Below the pieces are notes generated by a model. That model did no database searches and was not told where the DNA came from. It worked only from the letters and a program-made list of their open reading frames with translations. A stretch of DNA of 64,000 nt from Prevotella sp. CAG:891. Its GTDB lineage: Bacteria; Bacteroidota; Bacteroidia; Bacteroidales; Bacteroidaceae. The position numbers were made by a program, and so were the translations under genes. Below are positions 559-53,780 of the stretch, piece after piece (position 1 is the first letter of the stretch; the number at the start of each line of letters is the position of its first letter). Where the stretch lies: NCBI GenBank assembly GCA_000437675.1, contig FR901744.1, positions 3,977 through 67,976 of the forward strand, in the 5' to 3' direction.

Positions 559-789
559 TTTATACCCTATTTGCTTCCTGTTTTAAAGGTAATATGCATG
601 TGAATTTGTAGGCTCTTATGAAAGATTCTCTCTGGCTTTTCAGTCGGTTGTGCTTGCATAGAGTCAGTTTTTGTATGGTAGTATTATTCTGTCTATTTTA
701 TTAGGTGCTTATTGTCCGTACGTTATGTTAGGAAAAGTTTCTCATATTCCTTTGTGGTAAGTGTTAAACGCTATCTTTGCTTAAATGTA

Positions 790-1110
790 AAACTCTATTA
801 AATTGTAATCTTTCAATTTTTAATACATTCCGGTGTTTGAAGCATAGATTCGTATTTTCTTCAAATTGTCTCCGTAATTGTTGAAATTAGTTCCGCGATT
901 GTCAAAATTAGTTCCGAGCTAGTTGAAATTAGTTCCGAGCTAGTTTTGGCAAATTCGGAGCTGTTGATAATCAGGGCTTTAGAAAATACATTAAAGTCGG
1001 TTTGGCGCACGACTGTTTTGTTCGGAGATTGGAGCAAGGGTGGGTGTCCGATTTTTACTCTTATTAAATTATTTGTTAAAGCTGCCATGCGTATAACAAG
1101 CGACGAAGTG
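790..1110 (+). repeat. Tandem-repeat element, copy 1. It has three 21-bp units with a TTAGTTCCG(A/C)G core at 880-942, a degenerate fourth unit, the CTGTTGATAATCAGG hairpin and a conserved 3' block TTTTACTCTTATTAAATTATTTGTTAAAGCTGCCATG.
   Basis: Direct sequence similarity to the copies at 38.6-38.9 kb and 53.2-53.6 kb. The element boundaries are approximate. Confidence 0.7.
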
Positions 1111-1555
1111 CTATCCAATCCGATTGTTTTGAGTTTTGGCTTAGTGGAGTAGGTAAAACTATACGTCTAATGACCAAGGTTGGCCGTTGTAGGGGCTGTT
1201 ATCTATAATAATGTAGAGCCAAAGTTGCATTCCATTGATTTACATTCAGTTGTTGATAGTATCTGCATAAGGTGGAGAACTATTATTGAAAAATGACATT
1301 ACATAAGTTGGTGCAGAATAGTTACTTATTAAGAAATGGATAGATGTTTGATGCTGAAATGCAGAACTATGCAGCTTGTGCTGTTGTTGAAGGAAGTGCT
1401 TGTTGCTGTTCGAAATGGCACAAATTATGGTACTAACGTGCATTTTTTTTAGTTTTTAAAGTGCTTGATTATACGAAAAAACGTATCTTTGCAAAAAATT
1501 ATGAACGAAGGATGGTAGGATAAAGTCGTATCACCTTCCATGATAAATATAATAC

Positions 1556-2743
1556 ATGGGAATTTTACAAGACAGATTGGCAAAATACACCCTGCCGCAA
1601 CAATATCAAGCTCAGGGCGTATATCCCTATTTCCGCGCTATCGAAGGAAAGCAAGGAACTGAGGTCGAAATGGGCGGACATCATGTGTTGATGTTCGGTT
1701 CTAACGCATACACGGGTTTGACGGGTGATGAGCGAATCATTGCTGCAGGAAAAAAAGCCATGGATAAGTATGGTTCAGGTTGTGCGGGTTCGCGCTTTCT
1801 GAATGGTACGCTTGATTTGCACGTTCAACTTGAAAAAGAACTTGCCGCCTTTGTAGGTAAGGAAGACGCATTGTGCTATTCTACTGGTTTTACCGTAAAT
1901 TCAGGTGTCATATCTTGCTTAACCGGTCGTGAGGATTATATAATATGTGACGATCGTGATCATGCATCAATCGTTGATGGTCGCCGTTTGTCGTTTTCTA
2001 CTTGTTTGAAGTACAAGCACAACGATATGGCTGACTTGGAACGTCAACTTCAAAAGTGCGCTCCCGAGGCTGTAAAGCTTATTGTGGTTGATGGCGTGTT
2101 CTCGATGGAAGGTGATTTGGCAAACTTGCCTGAAATTGTGAAACTCAAACATAAGTATAATGCAACCATTATGGTCGACGAAGCACATGGTATTGGTGTG
2201 TTTGGTCGCAACGGACGTGGTGTTTGCGATTACTTTGGTTTGACCGACGAGGTGGATTTGATAATGGGTACTTTCAGTAAGTCGCTTGCTTCTATTGGTG
2301 GTTTTATCGCTGCTGACGAAAGTATTATCAACTGGTTGCGTCATAATTCGCGTACCTATATCTTCTCGGCGTCGAATACTCCTGCTGCTACAGCTTGTGC
2401 TATGGAGGCATTGCACATTCTTCAGCAAGAACCTGAGCGTATTGAAGCTTTGTGGGATGTGACTCGCTATGCTTTGAAGCGTTTCCGCGAAGAAGGTTTT
2501 GAAATTGGAGAAACTGAATCGCCTATTATTCCGCTTTACGTGCGCGATACAGAAAAAACTTTTATTGCGACAGCTCGTGCATTTGATGCCGGTGTGTTTA
2601 TCAATCCGGTAATACCTCCCGCTTGTGCTCCGCACGATACCCTGGTTCGAGTGGCACTGATGGCTACGCATACCAAGGAGCAAGTGGACAGAGCGGTAGA
2701 GTCGCTTGGTAAGGTGTTCCGCGAACTTGATATTATCAAGTAA
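1556..2743 (+). CDS. PLP-dependent alpha-oxoamine synthase family protein. It resembles serine palmitoyltransferase and 2-amino-3-ketobutyrate CoA ligase. In Bacteroidales a 395-aa protein of this type is typically the sphingolipid-pathway SPT.
   Basis: 395-aa ORF that aligns by eye along its length with E. coli Kbl, including the TFSK PLP-lysine motif and GVFSMEGD. Confidence 0.8.
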   Translation: MGILQDRLAKYTLPQQYQAQGVYPYFRAIEGKQGTEVEMGGHHVLMFGSNAYTGLTGDERIIAAGKKAMDKYGSGCAGSRFLNGTLDLHVQLEKELAAFVGKEDALCYSTGFTVNSGVISCLTGREDYIICDDRDHASIVDGRRLSFSTCLKYKHNDMADLERQLQKCAPEAVKLIVVDGVFSMEGDLANLPEIVKLKHKYNATIMVDEAHGIGVFGRNGRGVCDYFGLTDEVDLIMGTFSKSLASIGGFIAADESIINWLRHNSRTYIFSASNTPAATACAMEALHILQQEPERIEALWDVTRYALKRFREEGFEIGETESPIIPLYVRDTEKTFIATARAFDAGVFINPVIPPACAPHDTLVRVALMATHTKEQVDRAVESLGKVFRELDIIK

Positions 2744-2958
2744 TTAAGTATAAAGCATATAGTGAGTTGGTATTCAAAATTTTGAACGCCAACTTATTAT
2801 ATGTATGTTATAAGCTTGCTTTATTCAGATTATTCGGCATTCTGCTTCACTGTGTTTTAAAGTCTTTGTGATTTTCATACAGCTTGGTGAATGAATGTGG
2901 TTGCTCTGAATAAAGTAGGCATTTTTTATTGAATCTACCTATGTAAGCGTCTGAGAGT

Positions 2959-3744
2959 ATGAAAAAGTATAAAGTGTGTATGACTATAGCCGGTTCGGAT
3001 CCGTCGGGAGGTGCCGGCATACAAGCCGATTTAAAAGTGTTTAGTGTCTGGAAGTGTTACGGTCAGGCCGTTATCACCTCTTTGACTGTTCAAAATACGC
3101 AAGGAGTTGTTTATGCATCATCTGTTTCGCCTCAATTGGTTTACGGCCAGATTGTAGCTGTTTTTACCGACTTGAAACCCGATGTTGTGAAAATTGGAAT
3201 GATTCCCTCTGTAGGTGTGATGCGGAGTATTGTTAAAGCCATTAGGCAATTTGCTCCGAATTTTGTTGTATTGGATCCAGTTATGGTTTCTACTTCCGGA
3301 AAGCGTCTGATGGATGAGGAAGTTGTAGACGTGTTGCGTACAGAGTTGATGCCATTATGCCATCTTGTAACGCCTAATTTGCCCGAAGCTATGTTGCTGG
3401 CCGATAAAAATACAGAGAATCAAAAGGAACTTGCAAAGGTCTTAAGTGATATGATTGGCGGTGTTGCGGTTTTGGTAAAAGGTGGACATGCAGAGGGTGT
3501 TCCGGTAGATGTGCTTTATGCAGATGGATGCTGGCATGAGTTTGACAATGAAGTACGCGTTGATACTCACAATTCGCATGGTACAGGCTGTGTGCTATCT
3601 TCTTCTATAGCAGCAGCTGTGGCGCAAGGCGCAGGATTGCCCGAAGCGGTTGGGCGTGCCAAGGCTTTCTTGACCAAGGCATTACGCAAAGGGGCTGTTT
3701 ATGAAGCAGGTAGAGGTAAAGGACCGTTGTATCTTTTGCCTTGA
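2959..3744 (+). CDS. thiD: Hydroxymethylpyrimidine/phosphomethylpyrimidine kinase
   Basis: N-terminus TIAGSDPSGGAGIQADLK and the ribokinase-like C-terminal GTGC motif. Confidence 0.85.
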   Translation: MKKYKVCMTIAGSDPSGGAGIQADLKVFSVWKCYGQAVITSLTVQNTQGVVYASSVSPQLVYGQIVAVFTDLKPDVVKIGMIPSVGVMRSIVKAIRQFAPNFVVLDPVMVSTSGKRLMDEEVVDVLRTELMPLCHLVTPNLPEAMLLADKNTENQKELAKVLSDMIGGVAVLVKGGHAEGVPVDVLYADGCWHEFDNEVRVDTHNSHGTGCVLSSSIAAAVAQGAGLPEAVGRAKAFLTKALRKGAVYEAGRGKGPLYLLP

Positions 3745-4035
3745 TGTATTTGACGATGTATGCATTGGGAAATCACGAGAGGCGCAGATTCGAATTATTT
3801 GTTGTGGTTTCGGGCTGTACGTGAACTTGACGAAGTAAAAGTAAAACATTTGTTGGAAGGTTGATTATTTCATTGGTTTTTTGTATCTTTGCGCACAGCA
3901 AATAATGGGTAGTTTTGTCTGGTTCTGTAATGAGGACGGGCGAATCGGTATCTTTTCCGGATTCATTAGTATGCTATATATAGATGGTCGAAATGAATTG
4001 AGCATCTGCATAACTATCAAATAAGAAAATAAACA

Positions 4036-4938
4036 ATGAAAGCATTTGTATTTCCAGGCCAGGGAGCACAGTTTGTAGGTATGGGTAAAGACCTGTATGA
4101 AAAGCACCCTATTGCAAAGCAGTTTTTTGAGAAAGCAAACGAAATATTGGGTTTCCGTATTACCGATATTATGTTTGAAGGAACCGACGAAGAACTGAAG
4201 CAAACTAAGGTTACGCAGCCTGCTATGTTCTTGCATAGCGTAGTTAGCGCTTTGTGTTTGGGTTCAGACTTTCAGCCTGATATGGTAGCGGGTCACTCTC
4301 TCGGAGAACTTTCTGCGCTTACAGCAGCTCGCTGTCTGAGTTTTGAAGATGGCTTGAAGTTGGTGGCTGCACGTGCAAAGGCTATGCAAAAGGCTTGCGA
4401 AGCTCAGCCGGGAACTATGGCAGCTATTATTGCTTTGTCTGACGAAAAGGTTGAAGAAGTTTGTGCAGCTGTACGTCAGGAAACTGGTAAGGTTGTAGTG
4501 CCTGCCAATTATAACTGTCCCGGTCAGCTCGTAATTTCGGGTGAAGCTGAAGCTATTGAAGTTGCTTGCCAGCGTTTGAAGGAAGCCGGAGCAAAACGTG
4601 CGTTGGTATTGCCCGTAGGTGGTGCTTTCCATTCACCTTTGATGCAGCCTGCCAAGGAAGAACTTGAAGCAGCCATTGCTACGACTGAGTTCCATACTCC
4701 CATTTGCCCCGTTTACCAGAATGTGGATGGATTGGCTCATACAAATCCTGAAGATATTAAAGCAAACTTGATTGCTCAACTTACAGCTTCGGTTCTTTGG
4801 ACTAAGGAAGTTACTAATATGGTTGCCGATGGAGCAACTGAGTTTACGGAATGTGGACCCGGTAAGACGCTTCAAGGCATGATCGTGAAAATATGCAAGG
4901 GTAATGCAGAGGTTACTGCTCACGGAGTAAACGACTAA
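4036..4938 (+). CDS. fabD: Malonyl CoA-acyl carrier protein transacylase
   Basis: FPGQGAQ and GHSLGE active-site motifs in a 300-aa ORF. Confidence 0.9.
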   Translation: MKAFVFPGQGAQFVGMGKDLYEKHPIAKQFFEKANEILGFRITDIMFEGTDEELKQTKVTQPAMFLHSVVSALCLGSDFQPDMVAGHSLGELSALTAARCLSFEDGLKLVAARAKAMQKACEAQPGTMAAIIALSDEKVEEVCAAVRQETGKVVVPANYNCPGQLVISGEAEAIEVACQRLKEAGAKRALVLPVGGAFHSPLMQPAKEELEAAIATTEFHTPICPVYQNVDGLAHTNPEDIKANLIAQLTASVLWTKEVTNMVADGATEFTECGPGKTLQGMIVKICKGNAEVTAHGVND

Positions 4939-5222
4939 TCAGCCTTGTACTACATATAGCGTATATCAGCAGTTTTAAAGCACGGTGTTAAGGCTTTTGA
5001 ACTGCTGATTTGCTTTTATCTGATATGAACTTAGTCTATTGGGTTGTGGAATGAATAGCCGAACTGGCCATGGAGTATGAATTATAGTTATGTAGATGCT
5101 TGAATATGTATTTAAGTTAACTTAGACTAAGTGTATCAGGTAAAAAAGATTGGCAGACTTGCTTGAACTTTCAGTACAAGTTTGAATATCAGCCCATTAT
5201 TAGAATTATATAAATCAAAATT

Positions 5223-6890
5223 ATGAAACCACTTATATATCAGATTTTTACACGTTTGTATGGCAATGGCAATACCACAAATGTGCACGATGGAACGCTT
5301 GCACAAAATGGCTGTGCCAAAATGAATAATTTTACAAATACACAGTTAAAGCGTATTGCAGAGTTTGGTTTTACGCATGTGTGGTTTACCGGTCTGATTG
5401 AACACGCTACGCAGACGGATTATTCGGCTCACGGAATAGCTCAAGATCATCCGGCTGTGGTAAAGGGTAGGGCAGGGTCTCCTTATGCAATCAAGGATTA
5501 TTATGATATCGATCCGGATCTAGCAGTGGATGTAAACCAGCGTATGAAGGAATTTCAAAATCTGGTGAAGCGTACGCATAAGGCTGGTTTGAAGTTTGTG
5601 ATTGACTTTGTTCCAAATCACGTGGCACGTCAGTACAAGAGTGATGCTTGTCCTGAAGGTGTGAAGGATTTGGGTTGTGATGATAATGTAACTAAGGCAT
5701 TTGACCCTCAAAATAATTTCTATTATGTATTAGGTCAGCCTCTGCATACAGATTTTGATACAGAACGACGTTCCTTGTCTCCTTATAAAGAGTATCCTGC
5801 AAAAGTAACTGGTAATGACCATTTTGATGCATGGCCCAGTCGAAATGACTGGTATGAAACCGTAAAATTGAATTACGGCGTGGATTATTTGGATGGACGT
5901 AAGCAATATTTTGATCCTATCCCATCAACTTGGGAAAAAATGACCAATATACTTCTATTCTGGGCAGGTAAGGGCGTTGATGCATTCCGTTGTGATATGG
6001 CTGAAATGGTACCGGCTGAATTTTGGGCTTATGCTACAGCAAAGGTTCGTCAATCTTATCCAGACATTCAGTTTATTGCCGAAGTGTATAATCCGGCAGA
6101 GTATCGTCGTTACATTCAAAGCGGTTTTGATTATTTGTATGATAAAGTCGGACTTTACGATACGTTGCGTGCTGTGATATGTAACGGGCTTTCTGCAAAT
6201 TGTATAACTGGTTGCTGGCAGGCTGTTGATGATATAAAAGATCACATGCTTAACTTTTTGGAAAACCACGATGAACAGCGAATCGCTTCTGCCTTTTTTG
6301 CAGGCGATGCACTGAAGGCCTTGCCAGCTTTAGTCGTGAGTGCAACGATGGGTAAGAATCCGTTTATGGTTTATGCAGGTCAGGAACTCGGAGAACCGGG
6401 CATGGATGCTGAAGGTTTTAGTGGCTTAGACGGTAGAACAACAATTTTTGATTACTGGGGTGTCGATTCTTTGCGTAAACTTGCAGATAAGCGGTTGTCG
6501 CGTACAGATCTGGAAAAACAGCTTTATAGTTACTATGAAAGAGTGATAAAGTTGTGTAAATCGGAACCGGCAATTCAGGAAGGTTGTTTTTATGATTTGC
6601 AATATGCGAATTATCGGAGAGACTTTGGCTACAATGCTGACAGACAATATGCCTTTTTTAGAAAGGCAGAACATGGTAAGACATTGTTGGTAGTAGCAAA
6701 TTTTGATTTGTTTCCTGTTCATGTCGGAATATGTATACCCGAAAATGCCTTTGACTTTCTGACTTTGCGTTCGGGAATTCGCAACGCTGTTGATTTGCTT
6801 TCGGGAAATGTACAAACATTGTCACTTAATGCTGATAAGCCTACCTATGTAGATATTCCAGCATGTGGTGCCATCATATTGGATGTGTAA
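5223..6890 (+). CDS. Alpha-amylase family (GH13) glycoside hydrolase, cytoplasmic since it has no signal peptide
   Basis: FDFVPNHVA, GVDAFRCDMAEM and FLENHDE motifs of the GH13 catalytic domain. Confidence 0.8.
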   Translation: MKPLIYQIFTRLYGNGNTTNVHDGTLAQNGCAKMNNFTNTQLKRIAEFGFTHVWFTGLIEHATQTDYSAHGIAQDHPAVVKGRAGSPYAIKDYYDIDPDLAVDVNQRMKEFQNLVKRTHKAGLKFVIDFVPNHVARQYKSDACPEGVKDLGCDDNVTKAFDPQNNFYYVLGQPLHTDFDTERRSLSPYKEYPAKVTGNDHFDAWPSRNDWYETVKLNYGVDYLDGRKQYFDPIPSTWEKMTNILLFWAGKGVDAFRCDMAEMVPAEFWAYATAKVRQSYPDIQFIAEVYNPAEYRRYIQSGFDYLYDKVGLYDTLRAVICNGLSANCITGCWQAVDDIKDHMLNFLENHDEQRIASAFFAGDALKALPALVVSATMGKNPFMVYAGQELGEPGMDAEGFSGLDGRTTIFDYWGVDSLRKLADKRLSRTDLEKQLYSYYERVIKLCKSEPAIQEGCFYDLQYANYRRDFGYNADRQYAFFRKAEHGKTLLVVANFDLFPVHVGICIPENAFDFLTLRSGIRNAVDLLSGNVQTLSLNADKPTYVDIPACGAIILDV

Positions 6891-7145
6891 TTTATTATTG
6901 TGTCGTATTTCATACGATTAAAATCCCTCATATATTATCGCATAATTTGATTCAATGTTGATGATATATGGGGATTTTATTGTTCTATATTAAACCAAAC
7001 TATGTAAAAAGTAGTCTATATCACCTATTTTGACAAGAGTGTGATTATTTTTTGAGAAAAAACAAGAAAAAAGTTTGGTATATAAGAATAAAGTTGTACC
7101 TTTGCAATCGCAAATAGGAAATAACAACAACGTTGATCCTAAGGA

Positions 7146-7218
7146 CGCGGAGTGGAGCAGTTGGTAGCTCGCCAGGCTCATAACCTGGAGGTCGTTCGTT
7201 CGAGTCGAGCCTCCGCAA
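7146..7218 (+). tRNA. tRNA-Met (anticodon CAU), with initiator (fMet) type features
   Basis: Manual cloverleaf fold over 73 nt with a CTCATAA anticodon loop. C1 is unpaired with A72 and there is an A11:U24 pair, both hallmarks of bacterial initiator tRNA. The T-loop is TTCGAGT. CCA is not encoded. Confidence 0.85.
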
Positions 7219-7229
7219 CTAATAAAGAT

Positions 7230-7269
7230 GAGTGTATTAAAATGAAAGTTTTAATGCACTCTTTTTTTT
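7230..7269 (+). terminator. Rho-independent terminator after the tRNA-fMet gene
   Basis: 13-bp stem (GAGTGTATTAAAA/TTTTAATGCACTC, one G-U pair), loop TGAAAG, then T8. Confidence 0.8.
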
Positions 7270-7395
7270 GTAGTTGTGATTGGGGTTTAGAAACAACGGG
7301 CTGCAATCCTGTTTGAAGTATATCCTGACATCAAGTTGGTGTCGTTTAGGGTCAGTAGATTTTTAGTAATCCACGCGTCTATATCATCATAAAAG

Positions 7396-13373: not shown

Positions 13374-13425
13374 TATCTTTCATAAAATCCTTGACTAGGA
13401 ACTATACTTCAAGTTTGCTTTTTAT

Positions 13426-13476
13426 GCCGATTATTCTTTTTGTATCAATGCAAAGAATAATCGGCATATTTTTTAT
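13426..13476 (+). terminator. Rho-independent terminator of the nuclease gene
   Basis: Perfect 14-bp stem GCCGATTATTCTTT/AAAGAATAATCGGC, 12-nt loop, then ATATTTTTTATTT. Confidence 0.8.
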
Positions 13477-13520
13477 TTCTGAAACTAAAGGTTTTGTAGA
13501 ATGGTTATGGAGAACTTTGC

Positions 13521-14075
13521 CTCAGTCGCAAAAGCTTGTGGTAAAATTCAAACATGCATCCCAGGTTTCAGACAGGCCTATTAGCCTTACTTTCTGTTGT
13601 AACACGATCGATGTCAAAGAACGCTGAATGAATAAAATAAGGAATACTGTTTTTTCATCCGTCAAGGCTCATGTGCAGCTTATCAATGCTGTAGTGCTGC
13701 CTTTATTTCCGACTCCAAAGTCATTGCAAACCGAATGCAGAGTTAAGTAAGCTTGCTTGTATGAGCTATGCTGAGGTGAAGCCTGATTTCGCCGTAGGCA
13801 AAGATACAACAAGTACAACCCGAAATCCAAATTTTTTGGGCACCTAATATCGCAGCTCGAAAGTTTACCACACCTCCGAATGGACATTCAGCCCTTTATT
13901 TACGGGCATTTCAGTGCATTTTCCACACGCGAAAAAAATGAAATCGGGATATAACATTTTATCTCTTGCCGATTCTCAAAACGTACGAAGCAACAACGTT
14001 TTGCCTCACCCAAATGCTACAGCCACCACACCTTTTTACTGCTGGTTCGAACTTTCCCATTCAAAAATCACAGTC
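13521..14075 (+). repeat. R2 intergenic repeat, intact copy of ~550 bp. It carries a conserved hairpin CAAAACGT-N10-ACGTTTTG and a short ORF (MKSGYNILSLAD...) that is conserved in both copies.
   Basis: Roughly 85-90% identical to 38209-38550 plus 39057-39300. Confidence 0.7.
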
Positions 14076-18687: not shown

Positions 18688-19186
18688 TTATTGCGCACAA
18701 AATTAAGCATTTCTTTTCTTACTTGCAACATTGTTGGAATGCTTTTCTTGTTTTTTTTTTCGTGGTTGAGTGAACAGGCATCGTAAATGCTTGTTCTGCT
18801 GTTTTTTTCGCAACTTTATGCCATGAATGCCGTTTATTTTCCAAGAGTACCTTTTCTAGTAGATTGTGCCTTGAGGGGGTATGGTGCTCATTTTCTTACT
18901 TCGCGCGTATAAATTTGCATTGTCATGTTGTTATCCTTTACAAAAAACTTCGACGCACCTTGATTGTGCTGTGTTTTCGCTTTCTGAGTAAAATCTTCTG
19001 ATTTAGGTTCTGTAGGAATAGTATGTGTTGTATGGTTATTATTAGTCAGTTTGCTTACTTTTTATGGGTTGTAAATTATATAAATGTTTGTATGTGTACT
19101 ATAATAAATGTAATTATCTGATTCTCCGCACATTTTGCTTCAAAGGCTAAATGATTGTTCGAATCTCCGCACTTTTGGGAATTTCT

Positions 19187-19280
19187 AAAGTGTTGGTTAT
19201 CAGTAGTTTCACGATTGTCAAAACAAGCTCGGAACTAAATTCAATTAGCTCGGAACTAATTCACACAGTCGCGGAGTAAT
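19187..19280 (-). repeat. Tandem-repeat element, truncated copy 2 in inverted orientation (two units plus the hairpin region)
   Basis: Its reverse complement, ...AATTAGTTCCGAGCTAATTGAATTTAGTTCCGAGCTTGTTTTGACAATCGTGAAACTACTGATAACCAAC..., aligns with the 3' half of the arrays in copies 1, 3 and 4. Confidence 0.65.
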
Positions 19281-19609
19281 TTTTTACGATAGGCTGGTGT
19301 GGGGCTGTATCCCGGGAATCTGGCAAATAATGGCTATGTGCTTTTTGTATAATTTTGCTTTTGTGGAATTAGTCTTTTTATAATTATAGTGTGTTAGCAA
19401 TGATGCTGTATAAGAATGATATGCCATACTTTTCTGCTGTTATGTGTGCAGAATCAGCTCAGTGCGGATGTTAGAATTTACGAGGCTGCACGATATGTAA
19501 GTATAAAGAAAATCCCCGAATCAAGTTTGTGAATACTTGTCGGGGATGAATGTATATCAGTATATGTTCGTTGCTGACAACTGTTTGTCTGTTTTATGCA
19601 AGTGAGGTA

Positions 19610-37087: not shown

Positions 37088-38053
37088 ATGAAGCGAACAC
37101 TCTTTACCTTTATTCTGCTTTTCGCAATTTCATTATCTGCAATGTCTATGCGATATGAGGAGGCTAGGCGCCGTGCATGGTTCTTGACAGATAAAATGGC
37201 CTACGAGTTGAATTTAACTCCAGGTCAATATGAGCGTGCATACGAAATCAATCTAGATTACTTGATGAGTCTACGTTCACCATCTGATTGTTCTGGTCCA
37301 TATTGGCGTTATCGTGATGCTGATTTTCGTTGCATTCTTTTTGATTGGCAGTATAATTTATTCCGTACGCTCGACTACTTTTTTCGACCAGTTCGCTGGG
37401 TTCGTTCCGCGTGGTATTATCCCATTGTACATAGATATAGAGTAGGGTATTATTACTTTGAACGACCTGCAATTTATGTCAAATATCGTGGTCGTGGTTG
37501 GCGTAGACGAAGCCATAATGATCCAAGCCCTTATTATGGTATTCATTTTGATCGGGGGCATGGTATGCGCGATTATTATCACAATGGACATAATCATCGT
37601 CCCTCACGCCCAGACTATGGCCATAAGCCGCATAGGCCTGACAGACCAGGTAAACCCAACAGACCTGGTCAACCGCATAGACCAGGCAGACCTAATATGC
37701 CAGAAAAACCAAATTCTCCCGTAATTCCAATTAAACCGCTTCGACCTATAAAGCCTGACAATCCTACTGTTCAGCCTATAAAGCCTGGGCAGATACATAG
37801 GCCTAATCGGGATGACAAGGTGGTATTATATCCTAATCATAACTCTAATCATGGACGAGATTGGAAATATAGTGATTTCAGGAAGACTGAGAAGTCAGAC
37901 TTCTCACGATACTCAAGGAAACGTAATGCAAATCGAGACCGCAATCAGCGCGTATCAACTTCTTCGCGCAATGAAAAAAGTTTTGTAAACAAATCTTCGC
38001 GTAATTCACATTCTAATAGAAGTCAGCATCGTCGCTCGTTTGAGCAGAGATAG
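37088..38053 (+). CDS. Secreted low-complexity protein with three regions: a Tyr/Trp/Arg-rich N-terminal part, a PxRPxxP-type proline repeat region, and a basic Ser/Arg/Asn-rich tail
   Basis: Signal peptide MKRTLFTFILLFAISLSAMS, then strongly biased composition (RPDYGHKPHRPDRPGKPNRPGQPHRPGRPNMPEKPNSP...). No known domain recognised. Confidence 0.6.
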   Translation: MKRTLFTFILLFAISLSAMSMRYEEARRRAWFLTDKMAYELNLTPGQYERAYEINLDYLMSLRSPSDCSGPYWRYRDADFRCILFDWQYNLFRTLDYFFRPVRWVRSAWYYPIVHRYRVGYYYFERPAIYVKYRGRGWRRRSHNDPSPYYGIHFDRGHGMRDYYHNGHNHRPSRPDYGHKPHRPDRPGKPNRPGQPHRPGRPNMPEKPNSPVIPIKPLRPIKPDNPTVQPIKPGQIHRPNRDDKVVLYPNHNSNHGRDWKYSDFRKTEKSDFSRYSRKRNANRDRNQRVSTSSRNEKSFVNKSSRNSHSNRSQHRRSFEQR

Positions 38054-38123
38054 TCTTTTTAAAGTGAGAATGATGTGCAATAATATTAACATAAGCTTAT
38101 TGCGTTGAAATTATTCTTAGGTT

Positions 38124-38172
38124 AAAACCTCTAAAAGAGTTCTCTATATAGAACGCTTTTAGAGGTTTTTTG
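38124..38172 (+). terminator. Rho-independent terminator of the 37088-38053 gene
   Basis: 14-bp stem AAAACCTCTAAAAG/CTTTTAGAGGTTTT, then TTTTTTG. Confidence 0.8.
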
Positions 38173-38208
38173 TTGTAAAAGAGCAAGGTCATACAAGCGA
38201 AAGTTCGG

Positions 38209-38550
38209 CTCAGTCGCAAAAGTATGTGGTAAAACTTAACAACGCATCCCGGGGTTCAGACAGGTCTACCTGCCTTACTTTCTGAGGTGACAAAATGTCT
38301 AAGAACGCTGAATGAATAAAATAAGGAATACTGTTTTTCATCTGTTTAGGCTCATGTGCAGTTTATCCATACTGCAGTGCTGCCTTTATAGCTATTGTGA
38401 TGTCAGTGCAAACCGAATCTTGTTTTGTGCGAATGTCAGTGCAAACCGAATACAGAGCGATGAGAGCTGGCTCTCAAAAGTTATGCTGAGGTGCAGCCTA
38501 AGTTCGCGAAGCAAAGATACAACATGCACAACCCGAAATCAAAATCTTTT
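38209..38550 (+). repeat. R2 repeat copy B, left part, homologous to 13521-13853
   Basis: Direct alignment. It contains an internal 17-bp duplication. Confidence 0.7.
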
Positions 38551-39056
38551 AGTTTTTAACGTTTTGTATGGCTAACCGTTTCAAATCTCACCGGTCCCTT
38601 CGCCGTAAATGTTAAACAGTAAACCGTCGAGTAAGTGAAATTATACGAAAATTTTCAGCTTATTTTTCCATCTGCCTGCCGTTGTTAGAACCACGCGATG
38701 AGCTATCGTCAAAATTTGCTCCGTGATTCTCCGAATTAGTTCCGAGCTAGTCGAATTTAGTTCCGAGCTAGTTTCAATAATCTTGGAACTACTGATAATC
38801 AGCGTTTTCAGAAAAACGCCCCAATCGGTTCTACAACTGCTCATTCCGCCTTGCAATAATGCTAAAGGCGAACCCGTACATTTTTACTTTAATTCACCTG
38901 TTTGTTAAATCCGCCCCTGCGCACTCGAAGCCGCGAAATGTTTCCCCATTCAAAGTGATTGGTAGTTCCACGTTGAAGAACAGCTAGAAGCACAAAGTCG
39001 AAAATTACGGTTGGCATTTACTCGTAATGGTCATTACCCACACGTTGCAACATAGA
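38551..39056 (+). mobile_element. Inserted segment of ~506 bp that interrupts R2 copy B. It contains tandem-repeat element copy 3, with units at 38708-38798 and the hairpin at 38791-38803. It has no ORF.
   Basis: Absent from the otherwise colinear R2 copy at 13.5-14.1 kb. The junctions are flanked by a CAAAAT/CCAAAT-like sequence on both sides. Confidence 0.6.
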
Positions 39057-39300
39057 CCCAAATGCCCCCTAATATCGCACCTCAAAAATTTTCCCACATC
39101 TCCGAATGGGAAATAAGCCCTTTATCTACGGGCATTCCGGTGCGTTATTCACACGCGAAAAAAATGAAATCGGGATATAACATTTTATCTCTTGCTGATA
39201 CTCAAAACGTACGAAACTGCAACGTTTTACTTTACTCAAATGTCAAAGCCCCCACACCTTTGTGCCACTGTCCCGAAAGTTCTTTCCATTTTAATGGCTC
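39057..39300 (+). repeat. R2 repeat copy B, right part, homologous to ~13840-14075
   Basis: Direct alignment, including the conserved block CACACGCGAAAAAAATGAAATCGGGATATAACATTTTATCTCTTGC. Confidence 0.7.
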
Positions 39301-39437
39301 GTATAGAATTCAAAATCAGAATGTTGTATGCTGAATGATAGGTACGACCATTGAGGATAGGTAGATATGAAAGTAGGAGATAAACACCAATATAATGAGT
39401 GTTTACCTCCTACTTAATTTAGTTATAAGTCCTTAAA

Positions 39438-40457
39438 TTACTTCTTGTTCAAAGCTAAGTCAACTTTTACAGCACAAGCTACAGAGCAACCTACCATCGG
39501 GTTGTTACCAATCCCGAGGAAGCCCATCATCTCAACGTGTGCGGGTACAGATGAAGAACCTGCAAACTGAGCATCTGAGTGCATACGGCCGAGGGTGTCG
39601 GTCATACCGTATGAAGCAGGACCTGCAGCCATGTTGTCCGGGTGAAGCGTACGACCGGTACCACCACCTGAAGCTACGCTGAAGTAGGGCTTGCCAGCAA
39701 GTACACGTTCCTTCTTGTAAGTACCTGCAACGGGGTGCTGGAAGCGAGTGGGGTTGGTAGAGTTACCAGTAATAGAAACATCTACATCTTCCTTCCACAT
39801 GATAGCAACACCTTCACGTACGTCGTCAGCACCATAGCAGTTTACTTTGGCGCGGGGACCATCGCTGTATGAAGTTTCGCTAACAACCTTGAGTTCACCA
39901 GTATAGTAGTCGAACTTGGTTTGAACATAGGTAAAGCCATTGATACGGCTGATAATCATAGCCGCATCTTTGCCTAAACCATTGAGGATGCAGCGCAAGG
40001 GCTTGTCCTCCGGACGGCTTTGGTTTGCCATCTGTGCAATTTTGATAGCACCTTCAGCAGCTGCAAAACTTTCGTGACCTGCGAGGAATGCAAAGCACTT
40101 AGTCTCGGGTGAGAGCAGACGAGCTGCCAATTTGCCATGACCTACACCGACTTTACGGTCGTCAGCCACAGAACCGGGGATGCAGAAAGCCTGCAAACCT
40201 TCACCGATATATTCTGCTGCTTCTACGGCGTCTTTAGCCTTTTCCTTCAATGCAATAGCCGTACCTACTACGTAAGCCCATTTTGCATTTTCAAAGCAAA
40301 TCATCTGGGTGCTTTCGCATTCCTGATAAGGATCGATGCCATATTGCTCGCAAATTTGGTTGGCCTCTTCAATGTCCTTGATACCGTGCTTGTTAAGGGC
40401 AGCGAGAATCTGCTTGATACGACGGTCCTGGCTTTCAAATTTTACTTCTCTAATCAT
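39438..40457 (-). CDS. GGGtGRT-family protein (uncharacterised conserved family)
   Basis: 339 aa containing the eponymous motif ASGGGTGRTLHP. Confidence 0.75.
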   Translation of the reverse strand: MIREVKFESQDRRIKQILAALNKHGIKDIEEANQICEQYGIDPYQECESTQMICFENAKWAYVVGTAIALKEKAKDAVEAAEYIGEGLQAFCIPGSVADDRKVGVGHGKLAARLLSPETKCFAFLAGHESFAAAEGAIKIAQMANQSRPEDKPLRCILNGLGKDAAMIISRINGFTYVQTKFDYYTGELKVVSETSYSDGPRAKVNCYGADDVREGVAIMWKEDVDVSITGNSTNPTRFQHPVAGTYKKERVLAGKPYFSVASGGGTGRTLHPDNMAAGPASYGMTDTLGRMHSDAQFAGSSSVPAHVEMMGFLGIGNNPMVGCSVACAVKVDLALNKK

Positions 40458-52926: not shown

Positions 52927-53212
52927 GCTGCAAAGTTAATGGAATTAGCATGCTGAACCAAAGATTTTTGATTTTTTATTTTGCTTATATTCTCGTTCAT
53001 ACAGGTGTTGCCATCAAATTTCCTTTGAAAAACATACCATGTCTTGAAAGAAACGATAAATTCTATCAACAAGTAGGCATTCAAATCTATTTTCTATAAT
53101 ACTATCGAAGTGTTATTGTTTTGCATCGTGTTCTTGCACTGCATCTGTTTGTTTCGCTTAATCAGGGGATGTACTTCAGTATAGCTTTTCGAACAAGTTC
53201 TCATTGCTCTGC

Positions 53213-53600
53213 ATCTTCGTCATAAATGTTAAACAGTAATCTGTCTTGTAAGTGAAATATTTTTAAATGTGATAGCTCGTATTATCCATCTGCATGTCGT
53301 TGTTTGAGTCATGGATAGGGCTGTTCTATCAAAGAACTCCGAGTTTGTTGAAATTAGTTCCGCGATTGCCCGAATTAGTTCCGAGCTTGTTGAAATTAGT
53401 TCCGAGCTAGTTCAGATTAGTTCCGAGCTAGTTTTGACAATCTTGGAACTGCTGATAATCAGCATTATTAAAATTACGCGAAAATCGGTTCTGTGCATGC
53501 TGAATTTGTTCAGAAACGAGGAACTTGGCGAATGTCGAATTTTCACTCTTATTAAGTTAGTTGTTAAATCCGCCATGAGTGTAGTAAGCAGCCAATGCTT
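53213..53600 (+). repeat. Tandem-repeat element copy 4, the most complete copy. It has four 21-bp units at 53347-53430, a degenerate fifth unit containing GGAACT, the GCTGATAATCAGC hairpin at 53450-53464 and the conserved 3' block ...TTTTCACTCTTATTAAGTTAGTTGTTAAATCCGCCATGAGT.
   Basis: Direct similarity to copies 1-3. The 5' block CATAAATGTTAAACAGTAATCTGTCTTGTAAGTGAAAT is shared with copy 3. Confidence 0.75.
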
Positions 53601-53780
53601 GCCAGTACAAAGTGTGTTAAGGTTATGCTTCGTGGAGAGGGTTGGCGTTTGCGTTAAAAAAATCATGATTCGCATTTATAAAAGACTATTATCCATGCTG
53701 TTCGTAACTGTGTGTAAGAAAATAGCCCGAAGCTGATGGGTGAGGCTTCGGGCTGAAGGTTTGTTTACGAGTAAGAAGTG

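Follow-up and report, generated by a model that had tools for sequence, protein, structure and literature searches.

How did one copy of a repeat on the chromosome of Prevotella sp. CAG:891 come to be split by half a kilobase of other DNA, and does the DNA that splits it still move? The question is raised by a 64-kb stretch of contig FR901744.1 (hereafter the window, to which coordinates refer unless a locus is named), where a repeat termed R2 is present as a copy at 13.5 kb (R2a) and as a paralogue at 38.2 kb (R2b), the latter holding a copy of a second repeat, the tandem-repeat element (TRE). The answer, in which we have good confidence, is that R2 and TRE are two families of non-autonomous MITEs (miniature inverted-repeat transposable elements), that a TRE copy is nested in an R2 copy, and that both are most likely mobilised in trans by ISAon1-family transposases.

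Filled and empty copies of R2

BLASTN alignment confirmed what an earlier note on this DNA had described, namely that R2 is continuous at 13.5 kb and split at 38.2 kb; the insert measures ~510 bp. On the left, 13513-13837 aligns with 38201-38550 (74% identity, E = 5e-63), and on the right 13843-14056 aligns with 39068-39282 (82% identity, E = 2e-54), a similarity that far exceeds chance. A single interruption separates the aligned blocks, ~517 bp in R2b vs 5 bp in R2a. Breakpoints were set by this local alignment, a global MAFFT alignment having put the gap in the wrong place, and the insert, placed at 38551-39056 in the earlier note, was essentially right and is refined here to 38551-39059 (509 bp).

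R2 is a MITE in its own right, ~530 bp long, with a 23-bp terminal inverted repeat (left end GGCTCAGTCGCAAAAGCGTGTGG; right end, reverse-complemented, GAATCAGTAGCAAAAAGGTGTGG) and an 8-bp target-site duplication. The 8-mers flanking R2b are identical, and those flanking R2a are alike at 7/8 bases (AGAACTTT at 13511-13518 and CGAACTTT at 14048-14055, the right side being offset by 1 nt); these matches therefore delimit R2b as 38207-39274 and R2a as 13519-14048. The features of the two copies are as follows.

13519-14048, plus strand: R2a, uninterrupted R2 MITE of 530 bp, with ends GCCTCAGTCGCAAAAG... and ...CTTTTTACTGCTGGTTC
13830-13837, plus strand: empty target site AATTTTTT in R2a, equal to the TRE position in R2b
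38199-38206, plus strand: left target-site duplication of R2b, GAAAGTTC, matching 39275-39282 at 8/8 with zero offset
38207-38550, plus strand: left part of R2b, starting with the left terminal inverted repeat GGCTCAGTCGCAAAAGTATGTGG
38400-38451, plus strand: strain-specific 33-bp tandem duplication in R2b (repeats 38400-38418 and 38433-38451)
38543-38550, plus strand: left copy of the TRE target-site duplication, AATCTTTT in the window strain and AATTTTTT in most other strains
39060-39063, plus strand: right TRE target-site duplication remnant AAAT, 4 bp, complete in locus L117
39064-39274, plus strand: right part of R2b, with the right terminal inverted repeat ...CCACACCTTTGTGCCACTGTCCC at its end
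39275-39282, plus strand: right target-site duplication of R2b, GAAAGTTC

Further copies came from a metagenome scan queried with two phased 21-bp units of TRE, which yielded at least 118 loci; with L030 and L031, 120 loci were examined. R2 proved to be dispersed, with two copies in the window and at least 11 distinct ones in the metagenome loci, "distinct" denoting the count once near-identical copies were merged. Flanks could be compared for eight distinct copies: they match at 8/8 with zero offset in three (R2b, GAAAGTTC; L065, CTCTTTTC; L118, AAAGTATT) and at 7/8 in two more (R2a and L117), with an overall P = 6e-8. The chance rate was obtained from random positions searched with equal slack, where 8/8 was reached in 0.1% of trials (0.001).

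TRE (509 bp) is nested inside R2b, and continuous R2 is the common form. The empty site was read in 13 R2 copies, nine of them distinct, as CCA-AATTTTTT-GG, i.e. CCCGAAATC-CAAATTTTTTGNNNNC-CTAATATCG, with a spacer constant at 16 bp (15 bp in L149) and no variation of the breakpoint. The opposite polarity, by which R2a and the other continuous copies would be deletion derivatives of a split ancestor, had been raised in the earlier note and is hardly credible. Deletions do happen at this element, as seen in L098 and L118/L100, but the continuous form is the commonest, its nine distinct copies share an identical 16-bp junction and do not vary in any scar, and the insert has a terminal repeat and a duplication of its own and stands alone in many contexts outside R2. 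Nor is the insert flanked by an R2-internal duplication, the other arrangement that the same note had considered.

A better preserved filled copy is found at another locus, L117, and reads CCATTTTTTTT / G TTCTGT ... ATAGACCC / CAATTTTTT GCCCCCTAATATCG, where slashes mark the junctions; here the AATTTTTT run is duplicated at 7/8 bases. In the species of the window, the left junction is intact in 16/17 other readable strain loci (CCAAATTTTTT/GGTTCTGTAACG), and the right copy of the duplication has lost its T run (AAAT). The CAAAAT/CCAAAT-like motif noticed at both junctions in the earlier note was correctly read there as compatible with a short target duplication, the motif itself being the edge of a damaged AATTTTTT duplication.

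The insert as a full-length TRE

The insert had been described as a TRE copy with extra flanking sequence, a division that is not upheld: the whole insert is one full-length TRE. Its ends recur in unrelated gene contexts (L085, L047, L132, L044, L120, L105), where full-length TREs share the boundaries of the window insert within a few bases, and the 47 bp and ~100 bp of "extra flank" therefore belong to TRE. The family comprises non-coding MITEs of 510-560 bp with an 8-bp AT-rich target-site duplication and 2-5 internal 21-bp units. The terminal inverted repeat starts GGCTCTGTAACG; 17-27 nt inward from each end there is another box common to both ends, GT(G/A)TGG(G/C)TAAT (left end GGCTCTGTAACGTTTTGTATGGCTAAT; right end, reverse-complemented, GGCTCTGTRACGAAYCGTGTGGGTAAT). 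In L120 the left and right ends of TRE are identical at 19/27 positions (shuffle p = 0.002). Among the 11 TRE copies having both ends, three show an 8-bp duplication at 7/8 (P = 2e-4, the chance rate at 7/8 or better being 1.1% per copy), L117 and L105 (the latter with GGAAAAAC / GAAAAAAC at zero offset) being two of the three. The TRE profile matches 110/120 loci, representing at least ~70 copies that are non-redundant at 93% identity, and these occur in both orientations and in unrelated gene contexts. Four copies lie in the window.

660-1224, plus strand: TRE copy c1, full length, ends degraded, three 21-bp units
19103-19306, minus strand: TRE copy c2, core fragment only (repeats and conserved block), upstream of guaB
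38551-39059, plus strand: TRE copy c3, complete 509-bp MITE nested in R2b, ends homologous to full-length copies elsewhere
53165-53715, plus strand: TRE copy c4, full length, ends degraded, 4-5 units
38732-38772, plus strand: the two 21-bp tandem units of c3, CGAATTAGTTCCGAGCTAGT, found by Tandem Repeats Finder, their number differing between strains
38782-38803, plus strand: repeat core in inverted orientation, CTTGGAACTA, then the palindrome CTGATAATCAG, from the consensus of ~70 non-redundant copies

Defined ends with a terminal inverted repeat and 8-bp duplications above chance bear out the suggestion that the element is non-autonomous and MITE-like. Transposase remnants are absent from both MITEs, BLASTX against ISAon1 proteins giving nothing significant. 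The earlier note had also offered, as an alternative, insertion of TRE through the action of a site-specific recombinase on the phased 21-bp sites, which we regard as exceedingly improbable. The 21-bp units and the inverted core copy are indeed the best conserved parts, as expected of protein-binding sites, but they lie ~180 bp inside the ends. The junctions, moreover, resemble those of DDE transposition, consisting of terminal inverted repeats and 8-bp AT-rich duplications that differ by copy with no shared core site, and no window copy is adjoined by a gene for a recombinase.

Probable link to ISAon1-family transposases

Strains of the species carry a resident insertion sequence (IS) of the ISAon1 family, 1423 bp long with two open reading frames (ORFs), a transposase (NF049917, 536 bits) and an N-terminal protein (NF049916, 125 bits); Pfam DDE_Tnp_ISL3 was also matched. 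Its inverted repeats are GGCTCAGTAGATTTTTAGTGGGGAT and GGGTCAGTAG..., and it is found in L175 at window position 589-596 with the 8-bp duplication GTAATATG and in L003/L014 at 39288-39295 with the 8-bp duplication ATTTTAAT. It is active, because its sites differ between strains, each with an 8-bp duplication. An IS4-like transposase (DUF4372 and DDE_Tnp_1) is situated inside or beside the resident IS in L003/L014.

The first 8 bases of the resident IS are those of the R2 left end, and its first 10 are those at the right end of L042's R2 copy. The left inverted repeat of an ISAon1-family IS carried by a plasmid of Segatella copri DSM 18205, GGGTCACTTGCAAAAGCGTGTGG, agrees at 20/23 positions with the left end of R2 in L067 and resembles both the left end of R2b (shuffle p = 0.0005) and the right end of TRE (shuffle p = 0.0035); the TRE left end agrees with the resident IS at 14/23 (shuffle p = 0.028). 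Other ISAon1-family elements start GGCTCACCCG (in Parabacteroides merdae, where the 8-bp duplication is GTTTTATA) and GGGCTCAGTCCG (in Persicobacter), while the ISs in L175, L003 and L181 have 8-bp duplications and start GGCTCA or GGGTCA, to be compared with GGCTCAGT for R2 and GGCTCTGT for TRE. What is held in common with this ISL3-related family is the terminus GGNTCAnnnG, a GTGTGG-type box ~17 nt inward and the 8-bp duplication (three IS copies); R2 and TRE differ in having neither orfA nor orfB, and no internal homology to ISAon1-family ISs was found, the likeness being confined to the ends. Judged from these termini and duplications, the link to ISAon1/ISL3-type transposition appears strong for R2 and reasonable for TRE, and mobilisation of both by that transposase is inferred.

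On this account, a TRE inserted into the AATTTTTT run within an R2 copy and duplicated that run, giving rise to R2b with TRE at 38551-39059. Neither element codes for protein, and cut-and-paste transposition in trans by ISAon1-family (ISL3-related) transposases is the most likely route; the family is proposed because the termini are of the same kind, the duplications are of 8 bp and the family is active in this species. A partner ISAon1-family IS for TRE would be predicted to have the ends GGCTCTGTAACGTTTTGTATGG. A 2.2-kb "long TRE" in L081 (826-3043 of that locus) was considered as a possible autonomous parent and rejected: it consists of a TRE, intact at both ends, that has been split by a 1.6-kb IS3-family element with an orfA (124 aa) and an rve-type orfB (324 aa).

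Age of the insertion and strain variation

The earlier note had stated that the element family moves or has moved, and had advised looking for the empty 38.5-kb site in other strains. Past movement stands; present movement does not, the site being filled in all ~19 same-species loci with no sign of recent TRE movement. The TRE insertion at 38.5 kb is old and fixed in all sampled strains, and since every sampled locus is filled it is evidence of past movement only. The other window copies are likewise present at each strain locus spanning them: c1 in 10/10 sampled (one split by an IS), c2 in 10/10 and c4 in 9/10, the tenth being shortened by an IS66 insertion.

Variation among strains was seen at a smaller scale. 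The number of 21-bp units in c3 is two in 3 loci (the window included), three in 13 and four in 1, and the 33-bp tandem duplication of R2b is lacking in every other same-species locus. Other ISs (IS66, IS4-like, IS3, IS110, ISAon1) are present in some strains in the long intergenic regions of c1, c3 and c4. The intergenic region 38054-39437 is an insertion hotspot, with IS66, IS3, IS110, ISAon1 or IS4-like insertions, or rearrangement, depending on the strain (L006, L011, L016, L003, L007).

Several observations weigh against the nested-insertion account and its proposed transposase. No orthologous empty 38.5-kb allele was found in the ~19 same-species loci, and in the nearest relatives sampled (GGGtGRT protein 89-96% identical) the region is non-syntenic and neither element is there; the case for the polarity therefore depends on empty sites in paralogues. 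In the window allele both copies of the TRE duplication are degraded, and so is the left terminal repeat of c3 (AGTTTTTAACG), which reads GGTTCTGTAACG in 16/17 other strain loci; the alignment advised in the earlier note fixed the breakpoints, and the target duplication is intact (7/8) in L117 and not in the window. Several TRE copies lack a recognisable duplication. No autonomous IS matching TRE over its full terminal repeat was found, the best agreement being the 14/23 at the left end. Finally, transposition alone does not account for how strongly the 21-bp units and the palindrome beside them are conserved.

One site, several filled copies

TRE is found at the same internal nucleotide of R2 in R2b, L117 and L118/L100, with L098 as a fourth context. 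The outer 8-bp duplications of these filled copies differ, as do their flanking genes (R2b, GAAAGTTC; L117, TTCAATAG/TCCAATAG; L118/L100, AAAGTATT), and in L098 and L118/L100 most of the right R2 part beside TRE has been lost. Three R2 copies with TRE at one internal site, each with its own outer duplication and flanking genes, and the fourth in L098, are what would be expected if TRE had entered R2 elsewhere and the composite R2::TRE (~1.05 kb, R2 ends intact) had then transposed to 38.5 kb already filled. We hold this to be a real possibility, if a somewhat doubtful one. The filled R2 copies are mutually 81-85% identical, no closer than they are to empty copies (83-86% for L065), and between c3 and L117 TRE is less diverged (12%) than the host R2 (19%; Fisher p = 0.0015). 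This gap in divergence seems to fit separate insertions into the same site better than transfer of a composite; differences in rate or gene conversion could be the source of the same pattern.

Separate insertions raise the question of a preference for the site. TREs sharing 88-94% identity occupy exactly the same nucleotide position in R2 copies that are only ~80% alike and that differ in locus and outer duplication, and this position is immediately upstream of the -33 box belonging to a conserved promoter-like site in R2.

38512-38519, minus strand: promoter-like -7 box, TATCTTTG on the minus strand, facing left into the left R2 part, as read from the sequence

The -33 TTTG lies at 38540-38543, giving the minus-strand layout TTTG-N20-TATCTTTG, which we take to be the Bacteroidetes-type promoter consensus, and nearly every R2 copy retains the gcaaagataca block that holds the -7 box. 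Promoter activity of this site is putative and is suggested by the motif. It is tempting, though on balance unlikely, that TRE homes to one specific site inside another MITE, next to the -33 box of the R2 promoter-like element. If this were true, the conserved TRE core (phased units, inverted copy, palindrome) would act as a portable cassette for protein binding, brought to one defined promoter.

The conserved interior

The best-kept parts of TRE are the 21-bp units, the inverted core copy (CTYGGAACTA), the block TTTATT..TATTTGTTAAA and the palindromic CTGATAATCAG. Read in reverse, the 21-bp unit (AGCTCGGAAC) is loosely like the terminal repeat (GGCTCTGTAAC), and one possibility is that the units are candidate internal transposase-binding sites. 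The TRE core, like the R2 promoter-like site, may also have a putative regulatory role. Taken further, both elements might be non-mobile intergenic regulatory or small RNA (sRNA) modules under selection that duplication and gene conversion have disseminated. In favour of this, every window copy is fixed in the species, the core shows conservation and motifs resembling promoters occur, but the terminal repeats and duplications are backed by statistics, and the copies are found in either orientation and among unrelated genes. No conserved RNA fold was found either, RNAalifold on 25 diverse TRE 3' halves giving -2 kcal/mol and one covarying pair. We therefore consider non-mobile modules very unlikely, and mobile MITEs remain the preferred reading.

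Rfam returned nothing over 38000-39500, even at E-values up to 10. At 491-559 on the plus strand, ~100 bp upstream of c1, a match to the Rfam FopS sRNA family was recorded (RF04319, 72 bits vs a gathering threshold of 56); a FopS-like match was not found in the one other TRE region searched, 38000-39500.

Small ORFs were examined and rejected in both elements. That at the conserved TRE motif CCGCCATG varies in length and sequence and its ATG is missing in c3, and that in the best-conserved R2 block has a reading frame unlike between R2a and R2b (read by eye). Deep conservation of the 21-bp motif was also rejected: an Ignavibacteriaceae array (L031, 2753-2950 of that locus) and ten environmental arrays share only AGTTCCGAGC at a 21-bp period. 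In these arrays (L031, L040, L066, L088, L093, L099 and others) the units are otherwise unrelated, the G+C content spans 34-72% and some look as if they encode heptads; we judge them to be chance matches to the search pattern.

R2 has an internal tandem module as well, an 83-84-bp unit beside the promoter-like site in 1-4 copies depending on the R2 copy, seen at 12262-12547 of L118, in L065 and L122, and at 284-540 of L067. R2a has GAACTTT in the 8-mers on its two sides, and this target duplication and that of R2b (GAAAGTTC) are mutually reverse-complementary; the pair may have inserted, oppositely oriented, into one GAANNTTC-type target. The duplications of other R2 copies are unrelated to these. 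Long perfect hairpins, likely terminators, are found just 3' of the gene preceding each R2 copy (38120-38170 and 13424-13456), and both copies landed ~30-60 bp from them. At 53148-53214, abutting c4, the sequence weakly resembles (E = 6e-4) the promoter-proximal part of R2 in reverse complement, and this fragment overlaps a weak similarity to the TRE left end.

Comparison with known elements

BrickBuilt of Porphyromonas gingivalis is a MITE with a leader and a tail, 12-bp terminal repeats like those of a resident IS5-family element and a 23-nt minisatellite (Klein et al., 2015; PMC4596501). Its terminal repeat, GAGACCTTTGCA, is of the IS5-family type, and its duplications are short and variable, 2-5 nt (PMC4596501). 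BrickBuilt and TRE are both found in Bacteroidales and are non-coding, intergenic and multi-copy, with leader and tail ending in ~12-bp terminal inverted repeats, an internal spacerless minisatellite, only the ends IS-like and many copies degraded; BrickBuilt has promoter elements. In contrast, the sequences are unrelated, and TRE has a 21-nt unit (TTAGTTCCGAGCTAGTTGAAA), a terminal repeat GGCTCTGTAACG of ISAon1/ISL3 type and an 8-bp duplication. As unit, terminal repeat, duplication length, sequence and IS family all differ, TRE and R2 are not members of BrickBuilt, which is the nearest described analogue and of the same design.

A variable internal tandem module is also a feature of the pneumococcal BOX element, which is built as boxA-(boxB)n-boxC. 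BOX resembles our elements in that conserved left and right modules flank a tandem unit varying by copy and strain (TRE; R2 with its 83-bp unit, 1-4 copies), and it differs in sequence, which is unrelated to TRE and R2. To our knowledge, BOX elements lack clear target duplications and no transposase has been identified for them.

For Bacteroidota, large surveys have already reported MITE clusters by the tens of thousands (PMC11602168). R2 and TRE are two undescribed MITE families of an already known type of element, and given those clusters and the BrickBuilt design they therefore extend a known kind.

Genomic setting and significance

The window belongs to the core chromosome of a human-gut member of Prevotellaceae (Prevotellamassilia), of which closed same-species contigs reach ~3.1 Mb; its proteins find exact matches labelled Prevotella sp. 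CAG:891 or Prevotellamassilia sp. It contains housekeeping genes such as those for serine palmitoyltransferase, guaB, pcrA and ruvC, and several of its intergenic gaps are unusually long, 0.8 to 1.5 kb. A single match was obtained among viral contigs, L150 (IMGVR_UViG_3300045988_177304): filed as viral, it is ordinary chromosome, 99.4% identical to 840-7284 (the c1 locus), and diverges inside c1 at position 840, which suggests either another insertion there or a misclassified contig.

R2 and TRE repeats break short-read assemblies. The species-level metagenome-assembled genome in the genome collection gave only one TRE match (L030, labelled "uncultured Bacteroides sp."), on a contig that starts inside a continuous R2 copy (1-314) with TRE 1 kb away (1362-1758), and a contig end within a repeat is the pattern that such breakage would produce. 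The TRE of L030 adjoins a transfer RNA gene, recognised in the sequence by eye, and two ORFs, one of 406 aa and one, IS66-sized, of 531 aa. For strain typing, the number of 21-bp units at 38.7 kb is usable as a marker.

The finding is a clear instance of repeat-element mobility in bacteria, if an ordinary one, and knowledge of how MITEs work is unchanged by it. For this common gut Prevotellaceae genome, it explains what occupies the unusually long non-coding gaps and names the probable transposase family.

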